IMG/VR virus record: IMGVR_UViG_2541047869_000003 | Span: 1-39,722 of that record | DNA length: 39,722 nucleotides | Origin: a virus | Taxonomy: Duplodnaviria > Heunggongvirae > Uroviricota > Caudoviricetes | Reading direction: 5' to 3' (one strand) | Shown here: positions 23,077 through 39,260 of the stretch, one piece after another | Layout: every line of letters begins with the position of its first letter | How positions within the stretch are numbered: position 1 is the first letter of the stretch | Position numbers and translations under genes: made by a program | Notes under the pieces: generated by a model | The model's input: only the letters and a program-made list of their open reading frames with translations | Database searches by the model: none | What the model was told of the DNA's origin: nothing

Positions 23077-23601
23077 TTATGGCCAAATGGATAATTGCAT
23101 GTCAAGACTTTTAACAGCAACATGTTTAACTTTCTCAACACGTTTACGAATTTTGAAAGCATTTTGCATTGGTTGGTACAAAACAAATAATGATGCTTTC
23201 AGGATGTCGTCAATTTCATTTCTACAGGTTGCCAGTGAAGGTTTTCTCCATCCCTCGCCACCACGTCCACACATCTTGCGTGGCTTTGCAGTCGCGTGAT
23301 AGTAGGATGCAATTGCTCGCTTAGATGAACCATGAGCGTAGTAGCTGAGGAGGATGCCAAAGGCTTTCTTGTCAATGCACATGACGGAATCGACGACCTG
23401 AGAAATCAACATTCCATCATCATCATTGCACATTGGCCTTGTCATAATTCTTCCCGGCTCTACGCTCTCCATGAACTTCGCTATTACGCTGCTCATGCGC
23501 TTTTCCAAACGACCTGAATAAACCCATGCGCCCCACAGTTCAAGCCAGCCATTCAGCCACTCATGCTGTTCTTTGGTGAGGTTTAGTTCTCTTATGCCCA
23601 C
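23077..23601 (-). CDS. Q: Late-gene antiterminator Q (phage 21/82-type)
   Basis: 174 aa immediately upstream of tR', the tRNAs and the lysis cassette; Cys/His-containing C-terminal region; overlaps the upstream phosphatase gene. Confidence 0.8.
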
Positions 23602-24263
23602 GCGCCTTCTCCCTGTACCTGAATCAATGTGAGATTTCCGCAGAACACTGCCCCAGTATCGATATACATCTGGTTGGCAAATTTGAGTGGTTTCACTGCT
23701 GGCGTATGACCAAAGATAAACGTGTCCGCGCCTTTAATTTCTTTAACGATCCCGTCTTGTGAGTTGCTGATTCGTTCGCGGTTCCAGATTACCTGCTGAT
23801 GATCAACTGGCTTTCCAAATTCGTATTCGTCACAAGGATAATCGGCGTGGCAGATGACATATTTTTTACCTTTGCTCACCAGTTCGATGATTAACGGAAG
23901 TTCTTCTGCTTTATGGGCAAGAGCTTTAGCCAGAATTTCTTTGTCGTAATCGAGATTAAAGAACCAGCCACCGCCATCAAGCAGCCAATGATTAACGTTT
24001 CCACGCTCTGATAAGCCATCAATCATCATTTGCTCATGGTTTCCACGTACAGCTCTGAACCAGGGGAATGTGATTAATTCCAGGCATTCAACGTTCTCTG
24101 CACCACGATCAACCAAATCGCCCACCGAGATAAGCAGGTCTTTTTTGTTGTCGAATCCAATCGTATCCAGTTTGTTCATCAGGTTCGTGTAGCATCCGTG
24201 CAGATCGCCAACTACCCAAATATTTCGGTATTTGCTGCCATCAATTCTTTCGTAGATATTCAT
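23592..24263 (-). CDS. ninI: Ser/Thr protein phosphatase (lambda NinI/ORF221-like, calcineurin-like metallophosphatase)
   Basis: 223 aa with metallophosphatase motifs GDLHG, GDLVDRG, GNHE and a later GH. Confidence 0.9.
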
Positions 24264-24871
24264 GCAGCCTCACTTCTGCTGTTTCGCAGTTTTTTAAGTT
24301 TCTGTTGATACTCCGCCTTGATGGTCCTGCACTCTTCGACAGTCCAGCGATGGCGGTTATGGTTTGATTCGATTTCGTCTACTGCTTCCTGCCCGATGCG
24401 GTTAATCAGTTCGACGCGATACGGAACGAGATTTCCGCTTTTGTGCTGGTTGCACACCACGCATTGCTTGTGAATATTGCGTTCATCAAATCGGAGTTGA
24501 GGCGCCGCAGCAGTTGTCCGGTAATGCCCGGCATCCCACTGAGCAGACGTGAGCGTTCCGCACGAGATACATGGTAAGTCGCGGTCTCTTTCTCTGATGA
24601 AGGCGTTTACGGCTTGTTGGGCTTGTTTAATCCAGTAACTGCGGGGCTTTAAGGCGAGTTTTCGAATCTTAAGTTTATCTTTCTGTTTCTGCTCCTCTCG
24701 TCGTCGTTTCTTCTCTGCTGCCTTTTCCGCTTTTTCGCGTTCTTTGCTTCGTCGTTCGAGTGCTATCTTGGTTCCACACTCTGGAGAGCACCACCACTGA
24801 TTGGCGAATGCAGGGTGAAACCATTCCCGACATTCATCGTTTTTACATCGTCTTCGCGCTGGTTTAGCCAT
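24260..24871 (-). CDS. ninG: NinG (Rap) recombination protein
   Basis: 203 aa; N-terminal Cys cluster ([12 protein letters not shown]...WWCSPEC) and basic Lys/Arg/Glu-rich segment as in lambda NinG. Confidence 0.85.
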
Positions 24872-25983: not shown

Positions 25984-26156
25984 TTCCTCGCACGATGTCT
26001 TAGCCACCGGATATCCCACAGGTGAGCCGTGTAGTTGAAGGTTTTTACGTCAGATTCTTTTGGGATTGGCTTGCGTTTATTTCTGGAGCGTTTCGTTGGA
26101 AGGTATTTGCAGTTTTCGCAGATGATGTCGGTGATACTTCGTCGCTGTCGCCTCAT
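25980..26156 (-). CDS. ninE: NinD/NinE-family small protein
   Basis: 58 aa from the internal Met, [58 protein letters not shown], matching a lambda nin-region small protein from memory; starts adjacent to the ninB stop. Confidence 0.6.
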
Positions 26157-26593
26157 GCCGCCCTGTCTCCCCATCTCGCTTTCCACTCCAGAGCCAGTCG
26201 CGCTTCGTCTGACCACTTAACGCCACGCTCTGTACCGAATGCCTGTATAAGCTCTAATAACTCCGCAAATTCGCTTACACGCATCCTGCTGGTTGACTGG
26301 CCTATTACCACAAAGCCATTCCCGGTAAGGTTAGGAACAACGTCCTGCTGCTTTAATGCTGCTGTAAAAACGCACTTCCAGCTTTCTGCATCCAGCCAGC
26401 GACCATGCCATTCAACCTGACGAGAGACGTCACCAAGGCAAGCCCAAAGCTTTCGATTCTGGTCTAAGCTGCGGTTGCGTTCCTGAATGGTTACTACGAT
26501 TGGTTTGGTTGGGTCTGGAAGGATTTGCTGTACTGCGTGAATAGCGTTTTGCTGATGTGCTGGAGATCGAATTTCAAAGGTTAGTTTTTTCAT
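26153..26593 (-). CDS. ninB: NinB (Orf-family recombination mediator)
   Basis: 146 aa, the same length as lambda NinB; first nin gene after the replication genes. Confidence 0.85.
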
Positions 26594-30773: not shown

Positions 30774-30958
30774 GCATTAATTAGCATTAATATTTAGCTT
30801 AATCACAGAATAGCTAAAAATATTTTAGCGATAAATATATACATATCAATGAGATAAATAAAAATGATGCATTTTGTAGCTAATTGATGATTTAGCTACC
30901 ATTGCCCTGCTTATTTGAAATAAGCTATCATCACCATAACCAAGCATATGGGGGATTT
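30774..30958 (+). promoter_or_regulatory. AT-rich putative promoter/regulatory region of the cI-N cassette gene
   Basis: Perfect 8-bp inverted repeat GTAGCTAA-N8-TTAGCTAC (30876-30899), tandem GCATTAAT-like repeats (30774-30810), imperfect palindrome ATAGCTAAAAATATTTTAGCGAT; candidate sigma-70 elements TTGCCC-18-TATCAT (about 30902-30931); Shine-Dalgarno GGGGGA before the ATG. Confidence 0.4.
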
Positions 30959-31894
30959 ATGGATACTAAAAAACGAGCTCAAAAAGCAGCAGCAATGTCA
31001 GCAATCGTTAGATCAGCTCCAAAGCCAACTCACACAGGATTAATGGCGACAGGTGTTTCTTGTGCTGTTTTGCCTGATGGTCGCAGAGTGGTTTCAATGC
31101 AAGGTGCAAATGGATTGGCAGAAACATTCGGTGTATCTGTTGGCTCAAAAATGCCAAGATGGGTACCAAATGGGAAGCCAGGTCAATTACCATATGTTCT
31201 CCAAGCAAATGAGCTTCAGCCATATATTTCTGATGAACTAAGAGAAGCGCTAGCAGAACCAATTGTATATAAAAATACATCAGGTGCAGGTGTCGCTTAT
31301 GGCATTGACGTTACTATGCTACCAGCGCTTTGCGAGGCATGGACAGATGCTGAGAGGGATGGAGCCCTACGACAAAAGCATCACTTGAATACAGCTGCAA
31401 AAGCCAAAGCGCTCTATAAAGCTCTAGCTAGAGTTGGCGCCGTTGCGCTCGTTGATGAAGCGACTGGATACCAAAAAGAACGAGAGCGCGATGAACTGGC
31501 AAAACTCCTTGAGCAATTCATCGCTAAAGAAATGCGACCATGGGTAAGCACATATCCGCCAGAATTCTTTGAGGAGTTATGTAGACTCAGAGGAGTCCCA
31601 TTCAAAGCAAACATGCGGAGACCGCAATACTTTGGTCATCTTGTGAATAACATAACTTATGACCGCATGGCACCAGAGCTAAGAAATGCGCTAAAGGAAG
31701 AAAGAGCAAAAGCAAAAAAGGCAGGTGCAAAAATGCATCAGTTTCTATCAGAGGGAACTGGATATGGTCTTCTTCAAAAGAGACTTACAGGGGTAACAAC
31801 ACTCATGCAAGCAAGCGATACTTATGAAGATTTCATCCAATTGCTTGATAAGGTACACCCTCTACTAACCGTAGAAGATATTGACGCAGAATAA
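30959..31894 (+). CDS. Uncharacterized 311-aa protein in the cI-N accessory slot (lambda rexAB position)
   Basis: Start taken at MDTKKRAQ (good Shine-Dalgarno), not at the upstream in-frame Met of the ORF track. Lower GC by eye and AGA/TTA codons; flanked by intrinsic terminators. No confident family assignment from memory (possibly P63C-like, unverified). Confidence 0.6.
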   Translation: MDTKKRAQKAAAMSAIVRSAPKPTHTGLMATGVSCAVLPDGRRVVSMQGANGLAETFGVSVGSKMPRWVPNGKPGQLPYVLQANELQPYISDELREALAEPIVYKNTSGAGVAYGIDVTMLPALCEAWTDAERDGALRQKHHLNTAAKAKALYKALARVGAVALVDEATGYQKERERDELAKLLEQFIAKEMRPWVSTYPPEFFEELCRLRGVPFKANMRRPQYFGHLVNNITYDRMAPELRNALKEERAKAKKAGAKMHQFLSEGTGYGLLQKRLTGVTTLMQASDTYEDFIQLLDKVHPLLTVEDIDAE

Positions 31895-33417: not shown

Positions 33418-34041
33418 ATGTCATCAATCCGCTTAACTACGAGAATGAAAGAGGAAATCGCTCGTAACGCTTTAATTAAGTCTGGGGTTTTCACTGAACT
33501 TGAAGAAGTAACAAAGTTAAAGAACCAGCTTGCACTTGACGCCAGAGTTATTGCGTTTGGCGGTAAAAAGAAAACTGAGGAAGTGGATCAGTTATCATCC
33601 AAGTTGGTAGCTATAAGTGAAGAACTTGAAAAGATGGGATGTTCATTTTACTCATACGATGTTCGTTCTACTTCAATTTATCTGACTGTATCTGGCAGAA
33701 GGGTTGGATGGCATTCATATGGGAAAGACGGCAACGGCGAAGATATATTGCTCCCTACTCCAACCAAATATAAATGCATGTTTGACGCAGAACACGAAAT
33801 AACAAAAAGGTTTGATGAAATCTGCGCATTGCAACAAAACCTTGAAGCCTTGAAAAAGGATATCGAATCAAATGTATGGGCTGCTTTGAACTCAGTCACA
33901 ACAGTTAAGCGACTTATTGAAGTTTGGCCTGAAAGCAAAGAATTGCTACCAAAAGAAGCAGATAAAGCAAGTACAGCACTTCCTGCTTTACGGGTAGAAG
34001 ATTTGAATAAGATGATTGGACTTCCTTCCGAGGCCGCATAG
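33418..34041 (+). CDS. Hypothetical protein (207 aa) between sieB and cIII
   Basis: Start taken at MSSIRLTTRMKEEIARNA; AT-rich; no family recognised. Confidence 0.5.
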   Translation: MSSIRLTTRMKEEIARNALIKSGVFTELEEVTKLKNQLALDARVIAFGGKKKTEEVDQLSSKLVAISEELEKMGCSFYSYDVRSTSIYLTVSGRRVGWHSYGKDGNGEDILLPTPTKYKCMFDAEHEITKRFDEICALQQNLEALKKDIESNVWAALNSVTTVKRLIEVWPESKELLPKEADKASTALPALRVEDLNKMIGLPSEAA

Positions 34042-34265
34042 TCGACCTTTATTTTTGGCACTAACAACAGAATAAACACTGCACTGTGTATTCATTCCAA
34101 CGAGTGAATACGCGGAGCAATGTCGCTCGTAACCAAACAGGAGCCGACTTGTTCTGATTATTGGAAATCTTCTTTGCCCTCCAGTGTGAGGGCCTTTTTA
34201 TATGCATACCAATAACGCTTCACTCGAGGCGTTTTCGTTATGCAATCAAACAGAAGGAGCATCCT

Positions 34266-34436
34266 ATGCAACAGTTCGCTATTGCAGGGGCGGCATCGGT
34301 TCGCCCTTTCAACCCGATTTTATCGGTACAGCATTCACGAAAAAATATTTTAACCGGAGCAGACTTTAAACAACCAAGAATGAAAAGCTTGCTCGAAAAG
34401 CTTTGGGATATTTTGAAACAACAAGGCCGTCCATGA
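34266..34436 (+). CDS. cIII: CIII-like protein (FtsH inhibitor)
   Basis: 56 aa MQQFAIAGAASVRPF...SLLEKLWDILKQQGRP resembles lambda CIII (MQYAIAG...SLLERI...ILNQPG) from memory; Shine-Dalgarno AGGAG. Confidence 0.6.
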   Translation: MQQFAIAGAASVRPFNPILSVQHSRKNILTGADFKQPRMKSLLEKLWDILKQQGRP

Positions 34437-34517
34437 GTTTTACAGATAACTGGTCAGACGAAGAATTCATTCGTCAGATGAACAAAATGCTCAATCAGAA
34501 CAAAGAACAGGAGAAAG

Positions 34518-34829
34518 ATGATGATTCTGACTCTGAATGATAAGCGTGAAATATCGCAAATAATCGCAAGTTTTACTGATGAAGATTACGAACGAATCAA
34601 CAGTGAAGTTGATCGCCTCTGCAAACGTTGCGACCCAATAAGCGAAATGCTTCGCTCATATAAACCAGATGAACACACTAAGGACGCTATCGACTGGCTG
34701 GAAGATGATGACTGTGACTATCAGGAAAAAGCCGCTGAATGGTTCTGGGATGCAATAACCAAAAGAGTTAAGGCTGAATATGCCTTCGCAATATTCAAAC
34801 GCAGACACATTTTTGGAGAAGCAGCATGA
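34518..34829 (+). CDS. Hypothetical acidic protein (103 aa) translationally coupled to recT
   Basis: ATGA overlap with the recT start; Asp/Glu-rich with a CKRCDP motif. Confidence 0.45.
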   Translation: MMILTLNDKREISQIIASFTDEDYERINSEVDRLCKRCDPISEMLRSYKPDEHTKDAIDWLEDDDCDYQEKAAEWFWDAITKRVKAEYAFAIFKRRHIFGEAA

Positions 34830-35728
34830 GCAATATCGTTGAATTCGTTAAACAGCAAGAGCAGTTATTCTGCGGAGCATTGACTGAACAGACGGTGACA
34901 TGGGCTAAGGAAAGCCAGTTTGCAATTCAGTATTTCCAGAAAAATGATTACCTGGCTAAAACGGCACTGGCAAATCCAACCAGCGCACAGAACGCCATCA
35001 TCAATGTTGCGGCGATCGGAATCACCTTAAACCCGGCCAGCAAACTTGCTTATCTAGTTCCGCGCGACGGCATGGTTTGCCTTGATATCAGCTATATGGG
35101 ATTACTTCACCTTGCACAGTCGACAGGATCAATTAAGTGGGGGCAATGTAAACTGGTGTACTCAAACGACACCTATGAATCAAACGGCCTTGATTCAGCG
35201 CCAACCCACAAATACAACGCATTTGGTGAGCGAGGCTCTATTGTTGGTGGTTATTGCACGGTTAAAACAGCAGATGGTGACTACCTGACTGAAGAAATGA
35301 GTCTGGCAGAAATTAAAGCTGTGGAAGCAACGAGCAAGGCAAAGAATGGACCGTGGAAGACATTCTGGGAAGAGATGGCGCGTAAAACAATAGTTAAACG
35401 CGCCAGCAAATACTGGCCTAAAGCACAGCGACTGGATAATGCCATTCACCTGCTTAACGAAGATGAGGGTATGCATCAGGAACCGGTTATGCCGCACAAA
35501 TCAGAGGAAGATATCCGCGAAGATGAACGGAAACGCCAGCAGGAAATAATGGAAAAAGCACAACTTCTTTGTGATGAAATGGCTCAGGCTGAAAACATGG
35601 ATGATTTGAAGAGATATTTTGCAGAAGCATATCGCCTGACATCTGGAATGAAATTGCAGCAGAACGTACAAGCCATTTACGCAGAATGCAAAGCGAAACT
35701 GGAGGTTACCAGTGAGCAAACTGTATGA
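34826..35728 (+). CDS. recT: RecT-family single-strand annealing protein
   Basis: 300 aa; GPWKTFWEEMARKTIVKRASKYWP matches the RecT motif (GPWVTHWEEMAKKTAIRRLFKYLP) from memory. Confidence 0.85.
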   Translation: MSNIVEFVKQQEQLFCGALTEQTVTWAKESQFAIQYFQKNDYLAKTALANPTSAQNAIINVAAIGITLNPASKLAYLVPRDGMVCLDISYMGLLHLAQSTGSIKWGQCKLVYSNDTYESNGLDSAPTHKYNAFGERGSIVGGYCTVKTADGDYLTEEMSLAEIKAVEATSKAKNGPWKTFWEEMARKTIVKRASKYWPKAQRLDNAIHLLNEDEGMHQEPVMPHKSEEDIREDERKRQQEIMEKAQLLCDEMAQAENMDDLKRYFAEAYRLTSGMKLQQNVQAIYAECKAKLEVTSEQTV

Positions 35729-36194
35729 AATTTCCAATGAATACGCAAAATTGATGGATTCAGATTTAGAACCAGAGATGATTGCTGACACAATAGAAGG
35801 CATGGAAGGAGAATTTACCGATAAAATAGAGCAACTTCTTTCCGTCATTAAAAATGAATCTGGTTATGCCGAACGCCTCAAGGAAGAGGCAAAGTCACTG
35901 AATGAGCGAGCCACAGTAATTCAAAATAAGATTGACAGCATTATGGCGTATATAGCGTCATCGCTTGAAATGGTTGGCAAGAAAAAGATTCGAGCAGGTA
36001 TTCACCAGGTAACAATCCGCAAACCGTCAGAAATTGTAGAAATCATCGACTCAAGCGCCCTTCCTCCTGAATACGTTGAGTTTGAAACGACAATTAAAGC
36101 CGACAAACTGGCAATCAAACACCAACTAAAAGCAGGAATAAATATCCCCGGTGCTCAACTCAAAGTTGGGAAACCTTCACTTCTTATCAAATAA
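35712..36194 (+). CDS. Siphovirus Gp157-like protein (recombinase-associated)
   Basis: 160 aa, overlaps the recT 3' end by 17 nt; N-terminal MSKLYEISNEYAKLMDSDLEPEMIADTIEGMEGEFTDKIEQLL resembles the Gp157 family as I recall it. Confidence 0.55.
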   Translation: MSKLYEISNEYAKLMDSDLEPEMIADTIEGMEGEFTDKIEQLLSVIKNESGYAERLKEEAKSLNERATVIQNKIDSIMAYIASSLEMVGKKKIRAGIHQVTIRKPSEIVEIIDSSALPPEYVEFETTIKADKLAIKHQLKAGINIPGAQLKVGKPSLLIK

Positions 36195-36205
36195 CGGTAT
36201 CGCCT

Positions 36206-36520
36206 ATGAAAAAGACTCCATGGGAGAAATGGGAAGTCGATTTCTTGCGCGAAGTGGCGGCGACAATGCCAGTTGAAGTTATCGCTGAAAAACTGGAAAG
36301 GACTGAAAAAGCAGTAATGGCGAAAGCAACAAGGATTGGAGCTGACATTGTTAGCCGACTTCGTGGAAGACGCTGGACAAGAGCCGAAGTATCACTTTTC
36401 GGTAAGTTCTCCGCAGAAGAAATAGCAATTGCAACCTGCCGCTCAATTTATTCAGTAAGAGCTATGCGATACAAGCTAAAAAAACTCGATGAAGAAAGAG
36501 CAGGCATACGAATAAATTAA
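36206..36520 (+). CDS. Hypothetical protein with internal duplication (two HTH-like half-repeats)
   Basis: 104 aa; residues ~5-45 and ~55-95 look like related repeats (W..W.......EVAA...[15 protein letters not shown] versus RWTRAEV...[17 protein letters not shown]). Confidence 0.45.
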
Positions 36521-36700
36521 CAAAGAGGAATTAACCATGAGAGGACTTGCATACAATCCCGGCATTCTTCCGGCAGAAATGATTATTCGCCAACGCGTAA
36601 AGCCAATGCCATCGAGAGAGGAATTGCTTAAAAGAAATTCTTTTCCATCAGTGAATCAAAACAAATATCTGAATGCGATGTGGCGCAAAGGAGGCAACCA

Positions 36701-37414
36701 GTGAGCAAGATTGACTATCAGACACTGCGTGAGGCGGCAGAGCGTGCAATTCCGGCAATGGAACGCCTGTTAATGTTGCCAGTTGATGATGATCTGATAA
36801 GCGAACAGGAACTTAAAGATTACGGCGTGGATATTGATGCGCTCAACGCCTTCAAATTTCTGACCGGACCAGAAACCGTGCTGGCGCCGCTGGATGAACG
36901 GGAAAGAAACCAGCAATACATCAAATCCCGCGACCAGGAGAACGAGGAAATTGCGCTAACGGTAGGGAAGCTGCGCGTTGAGCTTGAAGCAGCAAAATCA
37001 AAACTCAACGAGCAGCGTGAGTATTACGAGGGCGTTATCTCGGATGGAAGTAAGCACATAGCAGAACTGGAAAAACAATGCGCCGAATGGGAGCGAAAAG
37101 CATTAAGCAACTTTGAAGAGTGTGCTGCGATGGCTGAACGTATCGAGGAGTTGGAGCAGGCCAACACAGGACAGGACGCCAATATAAACAGCCAACAGGA
37201 ACGCGTGACTCAATCAGCTAATCGGCACGTATATCACTACAACGCAGTAGGCGATGTTGGCGGAATCGCCATGTCCGGGATTGCGCAGTTACCTTTCAGA
37301 ATCAAATCGCAATCCGACCTTGAAGAGTTTAAAAGCGCACTTAGCAAGGTTTGTGGTTTCCATGCAAACGCAATTACATCTCTTTCATATCTTGGGCGTG
37401 AGGAAGAAGAATAA
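36701..37414 (+). CDS. Hypothetical coiled-coil protein (possibly Ead/Ea22-like)
   Basis: Start placed at the second GTG, which has an AGGAGG Shine-Dalgarno; central heptad-rich region ([18 protein letters not shown]...[14 protein letters not shown]...RIEELEQAN). Confidence 0.45.
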
Positions 37415-37418
37415 AGCG

Positions 37419-37610
37419 ATGAAAAACCGTAAAGCAAAGATGCTTATTTCCCGTGTATACAGACGTTGCTATCCCAGCCAGTGGTTGAGAGTTAGCAATC
37501 GCCGTGTGGTGTTGTACTTATATTCTGGAATTGCCAGAGAGGGAGTCAAAGATAAGCGCAGCGCGGCGCAAAACCGCTGGAAAAACCACTTGCGTATCAA
37601 AGGAGAGTGA
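37419..37610 (+). CDS. Small basic hypothetical protein
   Basis: 63 aa MKNRKAKMLISRVYRRCYPSQWLRV...; stop adjacent to the next start. Confidence 0.3.
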   Translation: MKNRKAKMLISRVYRRCYPSQWLRVSNRRVVLYLYSGIAREGVKDKRSAAQNRWKNHLRIKGE

Positions 37611-37611
37611 T

Positions 37612-37809
37612 ATGGATAAAAACACCACTGCTTACTGGAATCTGTCACTTGATACCGAATGCCCAAAATGCGGTCACAATTTCGATCTGCTTTGTGATGC
37701 TGATTTCTGGGAGTTTTCTGGAGCTAAACAGGCATGTGAAGAAATAAAAGGTTACGAAACATGCTGTCCAGAATGTAACCATGAATTTAAAACAGATTTC
37801 GTGTATTGA
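37612..37809 (+). CDS. Small zinc-ribbon protein
   Basis: 65 aa with CPKCG...CCPECN cysteine pairs. Confidence 0.4.
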   Translation: MDKNTTAYWNLSLDTECPKCGHNFDLLCDADFWEFSGAKQACEEIKGYETCCPECNHEFKTDFVY

Positions 37810-37819
37810 GGCATAACAA

Positions 37820-38683
37820 ATGACCACTATTACCAGAGAACAGGCACAGAAAATTATTGAAGCAGCCGATGAGGTTATTAGTGCGCTGGCCGGAACTAAT
37901 GAGGATGTTAACCCTGATAGCAATGACATGCTACGTCTGTGGGATGACCTGAATGACCGTCACGCGCCCCCTGAAGTTGTGCGTGAGCTGGCACGAATTG
38001 CACTGGCATCACTGGGAGCAGAACCAGTTGCTTATATTTTCAAACATCCGGCCGGAAAATTATTCTGGGCTTTGACGGATGAAAGCAATAAAGATCAATC
38101 GGACGTTATTCCTGTTTATGCTGCCTCACCTGCACCGATAGCGTCGGAGGCCATTGAAAACGCTATTGAATACATCCGCAGTATCGCTTTTCACATCGAT
38201 GAAGACGATTACCACGGCAAACATATTGCGTATTTCATGCGACAAGCATTGGCCTGGCTGGAAGGGCATTCATGCAGCGACGAAAGACTGGGTAAAGCCG
38301 AGAATCAACCAGTACGCGGCAACCAGGCTGCCGAATCCAATCGCGGTAATGAGTGGACTGGCAATCCTGATATTGATAACGCCATCATCATGCTCGACCG
38401 CATAGATACGGCGGAAAGTTGCGATGATGACCGTATTGAGGCCGTTAAGGCTGTGTTGCGTAGACTGGCTGGCAACTCTCCGGTAATTCCGGATGGTTGG
38501 ATAAGCTGTAGTGAGCGAATGCCCCCTCAAGATGATTGGATTTTAATTTATTCAAAGCACGGCGAGTATATGGCAGGACAGGTGCAAGGGGAATACGTGG
38601 AGTTGAGCGACGGCACTTTATCGTGGTTAGGGAACGTCTTGTTCTGGATGACGTTGCCAGAACCTCCGAAGGGGGCGAAATGA
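37820..38683 (+). CDS. Hypothetical protein with DUF551-like C-terminal domain
   Basis: 287 aa; C-terminus WISCSERMPPQDDWILIYSKHGEYMAG...LSWLGNVLFWMTLPEPPK is typical of the prophage DUF551 family from memory. Confidence 0.5.
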   Translation: MTTITREQAQKIIEAADEVISALAGTNEDVNPDSNDMLRLWDDLNDRHAPPEVVRELARIALASLGAEPVAYIFKHPAGKLFWALTDESNKDQSDVIPVYAASPAPIASEAIENAIEYIRSIAFHIDEDDYHGKHIAYFMRQALAWLEGHSCSDERLGKAENQPVRGNQAAESNRGNEWTGNPDIDNAIIMLDRIDTAESCDDDRIEAVKAVLRRLAGNSPVIPDGWISCSERMPPQDDWILIYSKHGEYMAGQVQGEYVELSDGTLSWLGNVLFWMTLPEPPKGAK

Positions 38684-38940
38684 TGGATGTAAAAGAGAAG
38701 GTTTTGCAGGTGATGCGTTCCCGGGCTGCCCTGCAAGATAAAGCTCTCGGCGGGGAATATCCATTCACGATAGCAACCTGGAATCTGCGGTTGGCAATGG
38801 AGAAGGAATTTCCTGATGAAGAATGGCGTTCGGCAGATTTGCGCAAAATTCTTATGGAGCTGGCTAAAGACGGAGCAGTATCCAAAGATACCTATGCCAG
38901 CCGGATTGGTCAGGCGGTATGGAGACTGGAGGTGCGGTAA
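38680..38940 (+). CDS. Hypothetical protein (86 aa)
   Basis: ATGA overlap with the preceding stop; MMDVKEKVLQVMRSRAALQDKALGGEYPFTIATWNLRL.... Confidence 0.45.
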   Translation: MMDVKEKVLQVMRSRAALQDKALGGEYPFTIATWNLRLAMEKEFPDEEWRSADLRKILMELAKDGAVSKDTYASRIGQAVWRLEVR

Positions 38941-39224
38941 TGGCTAACCTGCAACTTGCCGTCAAAGGTGAATACTTCGATGCCATGATTCGTGGAGAGA
39001 AAACGGAAGAGTATCGCCTGTGTAATGACTACTGGAATAAGCGAATTATGTTCCGGGAGTATGACCGCCTGATTATCACAAAGGGATATCCGAAGCGCGA
39101 CGATTCCAGCCGAAGAATTGACGTCCCGTATGACGGATATGAAATCAAGACAATCACACATCCGCACTTCGGCGATAAACCGGTAAAGGTGTTCGCGATA
39201 AAGGTGAATATCGGCAATGGATAA
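38940..39224 (+). CDS. Hypothetical protein (94 aa)
   Basis: Start MANLQLAVKGEYFDAMIRGEKTEEYR overlaps the preceding stop (TAATG). Confidence 0.45.
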   Translation: MANLQLAVKGEYFDAMIRGEKTEEYRLCNDYWNKRIMFREYDRLIITKGYPKRDDSSRRIDVPYDGYEIKTITHPHFGDKPVKVFAIKVNIGNG

Positions 39225-39260
39225 CAATCCTCGCACTCGCGGGGATTTCTTTTATCTGAA

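Follow-up and report, generated by a model that had tools for sequence, protein, structure and literature searches.

A 39,722-nucleotide (nt) stretch of viral DNA (IMG/VR record IMGVR_UViG_2541047869_000003, positions 1 to 39,722), here called the window, is an entire P22-like (Lederbergvirus-like) genome that carries, at 34518–36194 on the + strand, three coupled genes of a recombination (Rec) module: a gene for an acidic protein of 103 amino acids (aa), which we call X, a gene for a RecT-family single-strand annealing protein, and a gene of the Sipho_Gp157 family, here Gp157. The interpretation that we favor, with moderate confidence, is that these genes are the core of a PL, N-antiterminated cassette of the HK140 type in which X would be a Gam-analogous RecBCD inhibitor, and Gp157 would cap DNA ends and dock on RecT. 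In the mechanism that we propose, RecT would anneal single strands at ends and at replication forks, and resection would be left to host nucleases. Gp157, docked on the RecT C-terminal domain as λ Exo is on Red-β, would bind double-strand ends and cap them as Mu Gam does, shielding them from RecBCD and passing them to RecT. X would act as a functional analogue of λ Gam and φ80 GamL, neutralizing RecBCD or another host nuclease, and the Abc1-like and Arf-like proteins encoded beside the three genes would be non-essential helpers, as in P22. More tentatively, X may found a further family of sequence-unrelated inhibitors in the gam slot, swappable with Gam and GamL and uncounted in a published survey of lambdoid Rec modules, and Gp157 may be a RecT-docking end-binder that replaces an exonuclease.

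A Rec module of the HK140 type

X (34518–34829) is the head gene of the module, in the slot that gam has in λ. Its stop codon and the start codon of recT share the sequence ATGA, with a GGAG 8 nt 5' of the junction. The recT gene (34826–35728) encodes a 300-aa annealing protein of SAP-4 type that matched PF03837 (2.5e-33; 115.7 bits against a cut-off of 24; residues 31–214), TIGR00616 (76.8 bits against a cut-off of 52.65) and phrog_148 (4.4e-92). The third gene (35712–36194) starts with GTG, overlaps recT by 17 nt and has a GGAGG 6 nt before the GTG; its 160-aa product matched PF05565 (1e-36; 126.8 bits against a cut-off of 28.6), with residues 3–160 aligned to positions 1–162 of the 162-position profile. 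Homology thus supports all three open reading frames (ORFs) as genes rather than chance ORFs. An original prediction had described a RecT-family protein, a translationally coupled 103-aa acidic protein before it, an overlapping 160-aa Gp157-like protein after it, and no visible exonuclease. All of this held up: X is acidic (isoelectric point, pI, 4.73), profile searches for RecT and Sipho_Gp157 matched both families above their cut-offs, and closer family scans of the window ORFs found no nuclease partner. Among the scanned non-structural ORFs there was no match to the YqaJ, λ Exo, RecE or DUF3799 families, and among the scanned ORFs none to the SSB family. A hidden phage exonuclease was rejected on the basis of these scans. 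Elsewhere in the window the only recombination-related genes were those for NinB (26153–26593, − strand) and NinG (24260–24871, − strand).

The arrangement is not new. A 2025 Genome Res survey of 325 lambdoid phages distinguishes four anti-RecBCD types, Gam, GamL, Abc2 and MuGam; it scores HK140 as SAP-4 plus MuGam, without a phage nuclease or a phage SSB, and counts 84 of 246 Rec modules without a nuclease (PMC12315714). In 2023, the recT-gam-abc1 segment of phage Gally was called "the recombination module" and deleted (PLoS Pathog, PMC9928086). A 3.3-kb region of the window has 93–98% DNA identity to Kapi1, HK140, mEpX1, Gally and others, with the same gene order. With HK140 the window shares the order X, RecT, Gp157, D5-like/Abc1-like, at 93.3% identity over the shared genes, and the scanned window ORFs matched no nuclease or SSB family, as befits a module of the HK140 type. 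Some part of the region occurs in 2,370 of 5,426 complete Escherichia coli genomes, and nearly all of it in 50. The arrangement is therefore the already published HK140-type Rec module, common in E. coli prophages, and there is no substantive difference from HK140 and Gally, except that the published descriptions, in their available parts, leave out X and an upstream 35-aa peptide as module genes. The module itself, of a catalogued type and present in many E. coli prophages, adds nothing new; what remains of interest for phage recombination and for recombineering tools is X as an unrecognized Gam-slot family, and the pattern that links the RecT C-terminal domain to the downstream partner.

X heads Rec modules of varied make-up

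X matched phrog_3486, a family of unknown function, at 1.2e-58; searches of Pfam, NCBIfam, PADLOC and PDB sequences with X gave no match. Homologues of X start with MILTLND, so that translation probably begins at the second ATG (34521), which gives a protein of 102 aa. The family is small (27 clusters at 90% identity). An exhaustive search yielded 54 representatives at E<=1e-3, of which about 35 are full-length; these measure around 100 aa, with identities as low as 25%. Each of the 37 members aligned is an acidic protein (median pI 4.65), and the hosts in the records examined were Escherichia, Salmonella, Serratia, Cronobacter and Erwinia.

In every one of the varied genomic contexts examined, X was the first gene of a Rec module, and the homologues at the head of these modules are as much as 93% and as little as 25% identical. 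In 14 of 14 diverse loci, the X stop codon and the ATG that follows overlap by 1 or 4 nt, and the Shine-Dalgarno sequence lies within the last codons of X. What follows X differs from locus to locus. The order X-RecT-YqaJ/Exo was seen in ENT47670, in Erwinia phage Midgardsormr38 and in the loci designated L008, L010, L181 and L182; X-ExoVIII-RecT in phiEt88; X-ExoVIII/DUF3799-phrog_11517 in SEN22, whose X is 93% identical to that of the window, and in L184; X-DUF3799, at a contig end, in L009; X-phrog_21613-YqaJ in L011 and L012; X-Y8K6-RecT-Gp157 in L013; and X-RecT-Gp157 in a Serratia locus and in the window's own group. Either cIII or kil precedes X, as before λ gam, and near the X-RecT-Exo modules no Pfam match to Gam, GamL, Abc2 or MuGam was recorded. 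Since X heads modules of such varied make-up, it is tied to Rec modules rather than to RecT. The earlier view of X and Gp157 as two partners of RecT was thus borne out as regards tight coupling, but X is not RecT-specific, as it also heads ExoVIII/DUF3799, RecT-Exo and other modules.

These contexts bear on the proposal that X is a host-takeover or anti-defense gene of the PL operon, e.g., a regulator or a DNA mimic directed against restriction or another immune system, that merely adjoins the Rec module. X is small, acidic, helical, without a recognizable domain and restricted to lambdoid phages of Enterobacterales, and it lies among takeover genes of the cIII, kil, ral and sieB type, all of which would suit such a role. 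We nevertheless regard the proposal as doubtful, given that in all 14 divergent loci the X stop codon runs into the start of the leading Rec gene, that every context examined had a Rec module beside X, and that X gave no PADLOC match and was never found with GamL in the same slot.

Several further observations were made on the X-headed loci. The family has a conserved C-terminal E-[A/V]-A (window 34815–34829) that coincides with the GGAG or GAGG Shine-Dalgarno sequence of the next gene; because GGAG/GAGG sits inside those codons, the apparent motif is, at least in part, a Shine-Dalgarno imprint. The phrog_11517 proteins (about 185 aa; SEN22 L016:5130–5699 and L184:4639–5193) and the phrog_21613 protein (167 aa; L011:723–1226) are basic, have no Pfam or NCBIfam match, and adjoin DUF3799/ExoVIII or YqaJ nucleases in the position expected of an annealase; they may be unrecognized single-strand annealing proteins. 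Proteins of the new Pfam family Phage_P22_Y8K6 (PF27050) recur in the same operon (L013:4306–4629, L181:2418–2909 and L184:1718–1972), and in L013 the Y8K6 gene is an insert that separates X from RecT, with stop/start overlaps on both sides.

X and GamL occupy the same slot

In φ80 the gene order is gamL-rec-exo. GamL is a protein of 93 aa with a pI of 4.70, and its record carries the remark "toxic without Mog". X (about 100 aa, pI about 4.7) is similar to GamL in size and charge, and it shares with φ80 the position of a roughly 100-aa acidic protein directly 5' of recT in the PL operon. The two modules differ in that the φ80 upstream protein is GamL (PF28165), without detectable similarity to X, and in that φ80 has a λ-type Exo downstream instead of Gp157, with an unrelated RecT C-terminal domain (16% identity). 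GamL(PF28165)-RecT-Gp157 modules were found in Klebsiella and other prophages, so that X and GamL each occur both with RecT-Gp157 and with RecT-Exo, which completes the four possible combinations. X and GamL together were seen in 0 of 80 GamL-seeded and 0 of 80 X-seeded viral loci. The two proteins thus have the same slot directly 5' of an SAP-4 RecT and the same partners, a likeness and not family membership. GamL is reported to block RecBCD (PMC12315714). The best-supported interpretation is one of functional analogy, with X as a Gam-slot protein and most likely a RecBCD inhibitor, a conclusion that we hold with a little less than even confidence.

The comparison with λ Red runs along the same lines. 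The operon logic and order are those of cIII-kil-gam-bet-exo, with X in the gam position, and relatives carry cIII-kil-X-RecT-YqaJ; the differences are that Bet and RecT belong to separate annealase families and that the window lacks Exo.

X and Gp157 might instead be dedicated accessory factors of RecT, loaders or mediators that act on RecT or on single-stranded DNA and not on host nucleases. Both are tightly coupled to recT by translation, and, as described below, Gp157 and the RecT C-terminal domain vary together. Precedents exist in the small hypothetical ("h") proteins of Burkholderia RecET operons, which boost recombineering in the native host (PMC8313284), and in P22 Arf and Abc1, which aid recombination by means unknown. 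We nonetheless think this alternative unlikely. The 93% identical X of SEN22 and distant homologues of X have ExoVIII/DUF3799 or unknown proteins, and not RecT, as their coupled neighbors, so X cannot be specific to one annealase, and X alternates with GamL, the reported blocker of RecBCD (PMC12315714).

The window has 0 sites, on both strands of its 39.7 kb, of the Chi sequence (GCTGGTGG), where shuffled sequences would be expected to have 1.1, a shortfall that is not significant alone. Chi avoidance is reported for phages whose Rec module includes a RecBCD inhibitor (PMC12315714), and the lack of Chi in the window agrees weakly with this. If X is indeed a RecBCD inhibitor, some lambdoid modules that were scored as lacking an anti-RecBCD gene, or as MuGam-only, would need to be re-scored.

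Gp157, a putative end-binding partner of RecT

By its profile match, Gp157 is a member of the Sipho_Gp157 family, and PF05565 was matched by 20 of 20 aligned homologues. It also matched phrog_253, annotated "Mu Gam-like end protection", at 3.3e-54, and the "MuGam" type was assigned to Gp157 by PHROGs, by the survey (PMC12315714) and in the Gally work (PMC9928086). The kinship with Mu Gam itself is marginal. Against PF07352 (Mu Gam), Gp157 scored 18.1 bits (E = 0.0026), which is under the gathering cut-off (28.3 bits); of 20 homologues, only 5 matched that profile at E<=0.05. Comparison of Gp157 with Mu Gam by hhalign gave a weak E = 0.045; against a 52-sequence Mu Gam profile, the hhalign alignment covered 118 collinear columns at E = 0.007, with a probability of just 5%, and control alignments gave E = 0.07–0.49 over at most 37 columns. 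PDB sequence searches with Gp157 and with its profile produced chance-level matches only. The AlphaFold2 model (predicted local distance difference test score, pLDDT, 81; predicted template modeling score 0.45) consists of a short helix, a helix of about 68 residues and a C-terminal β domain. We regard Gp157 as a putative DNA-end-binding partner of RecT.

The Gp157 family is widespread, with 623 phage records found by tblastn, mostly of Firmicutes and Vibrio. The Pfam description of Sipho_Gp157 suggests a role in phage resistance or exclusion; the family name derives from orf157 of an S. thermophilus phage, and one Staphylococcus phage record labels the homologue a "putative bacteriophage resistance factor". 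That Gp157 is a resistance or exclusion factor and not a recombination protein is nevertheless highly improbable, for its genes regularly adjoin those of annealases, exonucleases or SSB across Firmicutes and Proteobacteria, and here the gene is expressed from the lytic PL operon and not as a lysogenic moron. A PADLOC scan of all the module genes gave no match.

The RecT C-terminal domain varies with the downstream gene

The RecT of the window has an annealing domain (about residues 1–215) and a C-terminal domain (about residues 216–300; nt 35471–35728) of what we term the Gp157-linked type. Its 57% identity to φ80 Rec is confined to residues 4–217. Eleven RecTs of SAP-4 type were grouped as Gp157-linked or Exo-linked and compared by domain. 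Between the groups, the annealing domains are about 55% identical (49–66%) and the last 85 or so residues about 12% identical (8–17%); within the groups, these last residues are 42–83% identical for the Gp157-linked and 33–100% for the Exo-linked proteins, about 51–54%. The grouping is independent of whether the upstream gene is X or GamL. The RecT C-terminal domain therefore comes in two unrelated types that match the downstream gene, Gp157 or Exo. The C-terminal domain of Red-β binds λ Exo. By analogy, the difference in RecT C-terminal domain with downstream partner suggests that Gp157 probably docks there. Swapping of this domain with the partner offers a handle on nuclease-less Rec modules, and the pattern could guide the choice of accessory genes for co-expression with a given RecT.

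One RecT, that of locus L007 (387–1265), has an N-terminal domain 74–75% identical to the Gp157 clade and a C-terminal domain of the Exo type. By sequence it is apparently a domain swap, produced by recombination within recT at the boundary of its two domains.

Points against RecBCD inhibition by X and docking by Gp157

A number of results weigh against the interpretation of X as a RecBCD inhibitor and of Gp157 as a protein docked on RecT. To judge from sequence, X has no detectable kinship to λ Gam, GamL or Abc2. Its AlphaFold2 model has five helices (pLDDT 73) and was built from only 5 sequences; a Foldseek comparison with the PDB, which depends on that model, gave no match (best E = 1.4). 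The coexistence of X with a MuGam-type protein would give the window two anti-RecBCD functions. The X-seeded loci in which GamL was sought are close relatives, with X at least 96% identical, and do not amount to 80 independent observations. All of the Gp157-linked RecTs form one clade, so that the pattern of C-terminal domain and partner is confounded by phylogeny, and in L007 the downstream partner is not visible, the contig ending before the gene 3' of recT. Finally, a Gally prophage deleted for recT-gam-abc1 still yields lysogenizing virions (PMC9928086), and the recT-gam-abc1 module is thus not essential under the conditions of the Gally deletion. The homology arm of the Gally deletion primer is identical to window 34780–34829, which indicates that X stayed in that deletion. 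As for the two functions, the survey notes GamL plus MuGam in HK639 (PMC12315714). Given HK639, and given that GamL also co-occurs with Gp157, the presence of X beside a MuGam-type protein is compatible with X as an inhibitor.

The searches behind these statements were as follows. The original prediction had pointed to a structural comparison of X with known RecBCD inhibitors, and the fold searches matched none of them: no Gam chain was among the Foldseek PDB matches of the X model, and the helical hairpins of UvsY and EsxB type that were among them were at chance level, as were the matches in PDB sequence searches with X and its profile. Membership of X in the λ Gam family (PF06064) was rejected for want of a Pfam match. 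An hhalign comparison of X with λ Gam found a 19-residue motif, DDDxxxQExxAE (E = 0.011, probability 3.8%), which serves as a lead rather than as evidence. Membership in the φ80 GamL family was likewise rejected, as 0 of 37 X-family members matched PF28165 at E<=1; hhalign of X with GamL gave E = 0.009–0.19, and reciprocal hidden Markov model scores were at most 5 bits. BLASTP of X against P22 Abc1, Abc2 and Arf gave nothing significant (Abc2, E = 2.9). It is reasonable to retain both X and Gp157, as originally proposed, as candidates for an anti-RecBCD role.

The wider cassette and its neighbors

The conserved unit is larger than three genes. It spans 34433–36704 and consists of five to six translationally linked genes, those of an Arf-like peptide, X, RecT, Gp157, an Abc1-like protein and a DUF2737 protein. 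In a sample of 80 IMG/VR viral loci with X at least 96% identical to that of the window, the 35-aa peptide, X, RecT and Gp157 were all present in 80 of 80; the 104-aa Abc1-like protein and DUF2737 were present in nearly all, with DUF2737 after the Abc1-like gene in 77.

The Arf-like acidic peptide (34433–34540, + strand; 35 aa, pI 4.1) is encoded by a gene whose last 23 nt are shared with the start of X. It has an N-terminal SDEEFI motif and matched phrog_17766 (3.5e-14) and phrog_2123 ("recombinase", HK022 p38-like; 5.3e-10), with no match to the P22 Arf family, phrog_2445. By BLASTP its similarity to P22 Arf is E = 0.01 and covers the SDEEFI motif only; position and acidity are also common to both. 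The Abc1-like protein (36206–36520, + strand; 104 aa, pI 10.0) is basic, with two Myb/helix-turn-helix (HTH)-like repeats of the W-x2-E kind. It is similar to P22 Abc1 (pI 10.3) in size and pI, and both matched phrog_323 (2.8e-20 and 1.3e-23, respectively), in partly different segments of the profile; Mu gp9 is also a member. The hhalign comparison was moderate with Mu gp9 (E = 3.5e-5, probability 72%) and weak with P22 Abc1 (E = 8e-4, probability 24%), and BLASTP against P22 Abc1, Abc2 and Arf gave nothing significant. The Gally counterpart was named "Abc1" (PMC9928086). The cassette tail is the gene of a 55-aa DUF2737-type protein (36537–36704, + strand; phrog_1117, 2.1e-37).

These genes qualify the original idea that the module stands in place of the P22 Erf/Abc set. 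Its position does match that of erf and abc, but the Abc1-like and Arf-like genes are kept, just outside the three-gene segment considered originally. Like P22, with its arf-erf-abc1-abc2, the window has the module at the same position in a P22-like genome, lacks a phage exonuclease, and has a small acidic SDEEFI peptide upstream and a basic phrog_323 HTH protein downstream. It differs from P22 in that RecT replaces Erf, in that no Abc2 (PF11043/phrog_656) was found among the PL-operon ORFs scanned (33418–39224), and in that X and Gp157 have no P22 counterpart. The P22 set is thus partly replaced, with Erf exchanged for RecT, Abc2 absent, and Arf-like and Abc1-like genes retained.

Phage Mu offers a further parallel. 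Mu Gam binds DNA ends and blocks RecBCD, and in Mu the phrog_323 HTH protein gp9 adjoins Gam as the Abc1-like gene adjoins Gp157. The differences from Mu are a reversed gene order, the absence of an annealase alongside, and the marginal similarity of Gp157 to Mu Gam. The gp9 gene lies directly 5' of Mu gam (L015:2483–3326) and, like P22 Abc1 and the 104-aa ORF of the window, belongs to phrog_323; this HTH protein recurs beside genes of the Gam/Gp157 type and annealase genes in Mu, P22, SEN22 and the window phage.

Directly 5' of the cassette is cIII (34266–34436, + strand; phrog_550, "CIII anti-termination", 1e-22). The leftward early operon has the order cI-like repressor, P63C, N, sieB (on the opposite strand), Nmad5, cIII, cassette, ea genes and xis. 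Two terminator-like hairpins lie 5' of cIII, at 34176–34233; the next is at 39226, none having been found between 34266 and that position. In the rest of the genome, the integrase gene is at 1–1155 and xis runs from 39522 to the end. P22-type ant, arc, portal and lysis genes are also encoded, and the nearest phages are CUS-3 and Kapi1.

Some other genes of the window are of separate interest. Between sieB and cIII, at 33418–34041 (+ strand), the PL operon encodes an Nmad5 protein of full length ("nucleotide modification associated domain 5"; PF18757, 3.8e-71). Its gene is a variable insert, which only some related loci have. The nin region holds a C-5 cytosine DNA methyltransferase (PF00145; 25033–26019, − strand) and a calcineurin-like phosphoesterase (23592–24263, − strand), along with NinB, NinF, NinG and Q. 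Between the cI-like repressor and N, a 330-aa P63C-domain protein (PF10546; phrog_2384) is encoded at 30902–31894 (+ strand), and a P63C protein is placed alike in locus L182 and in Midgardsormr38.

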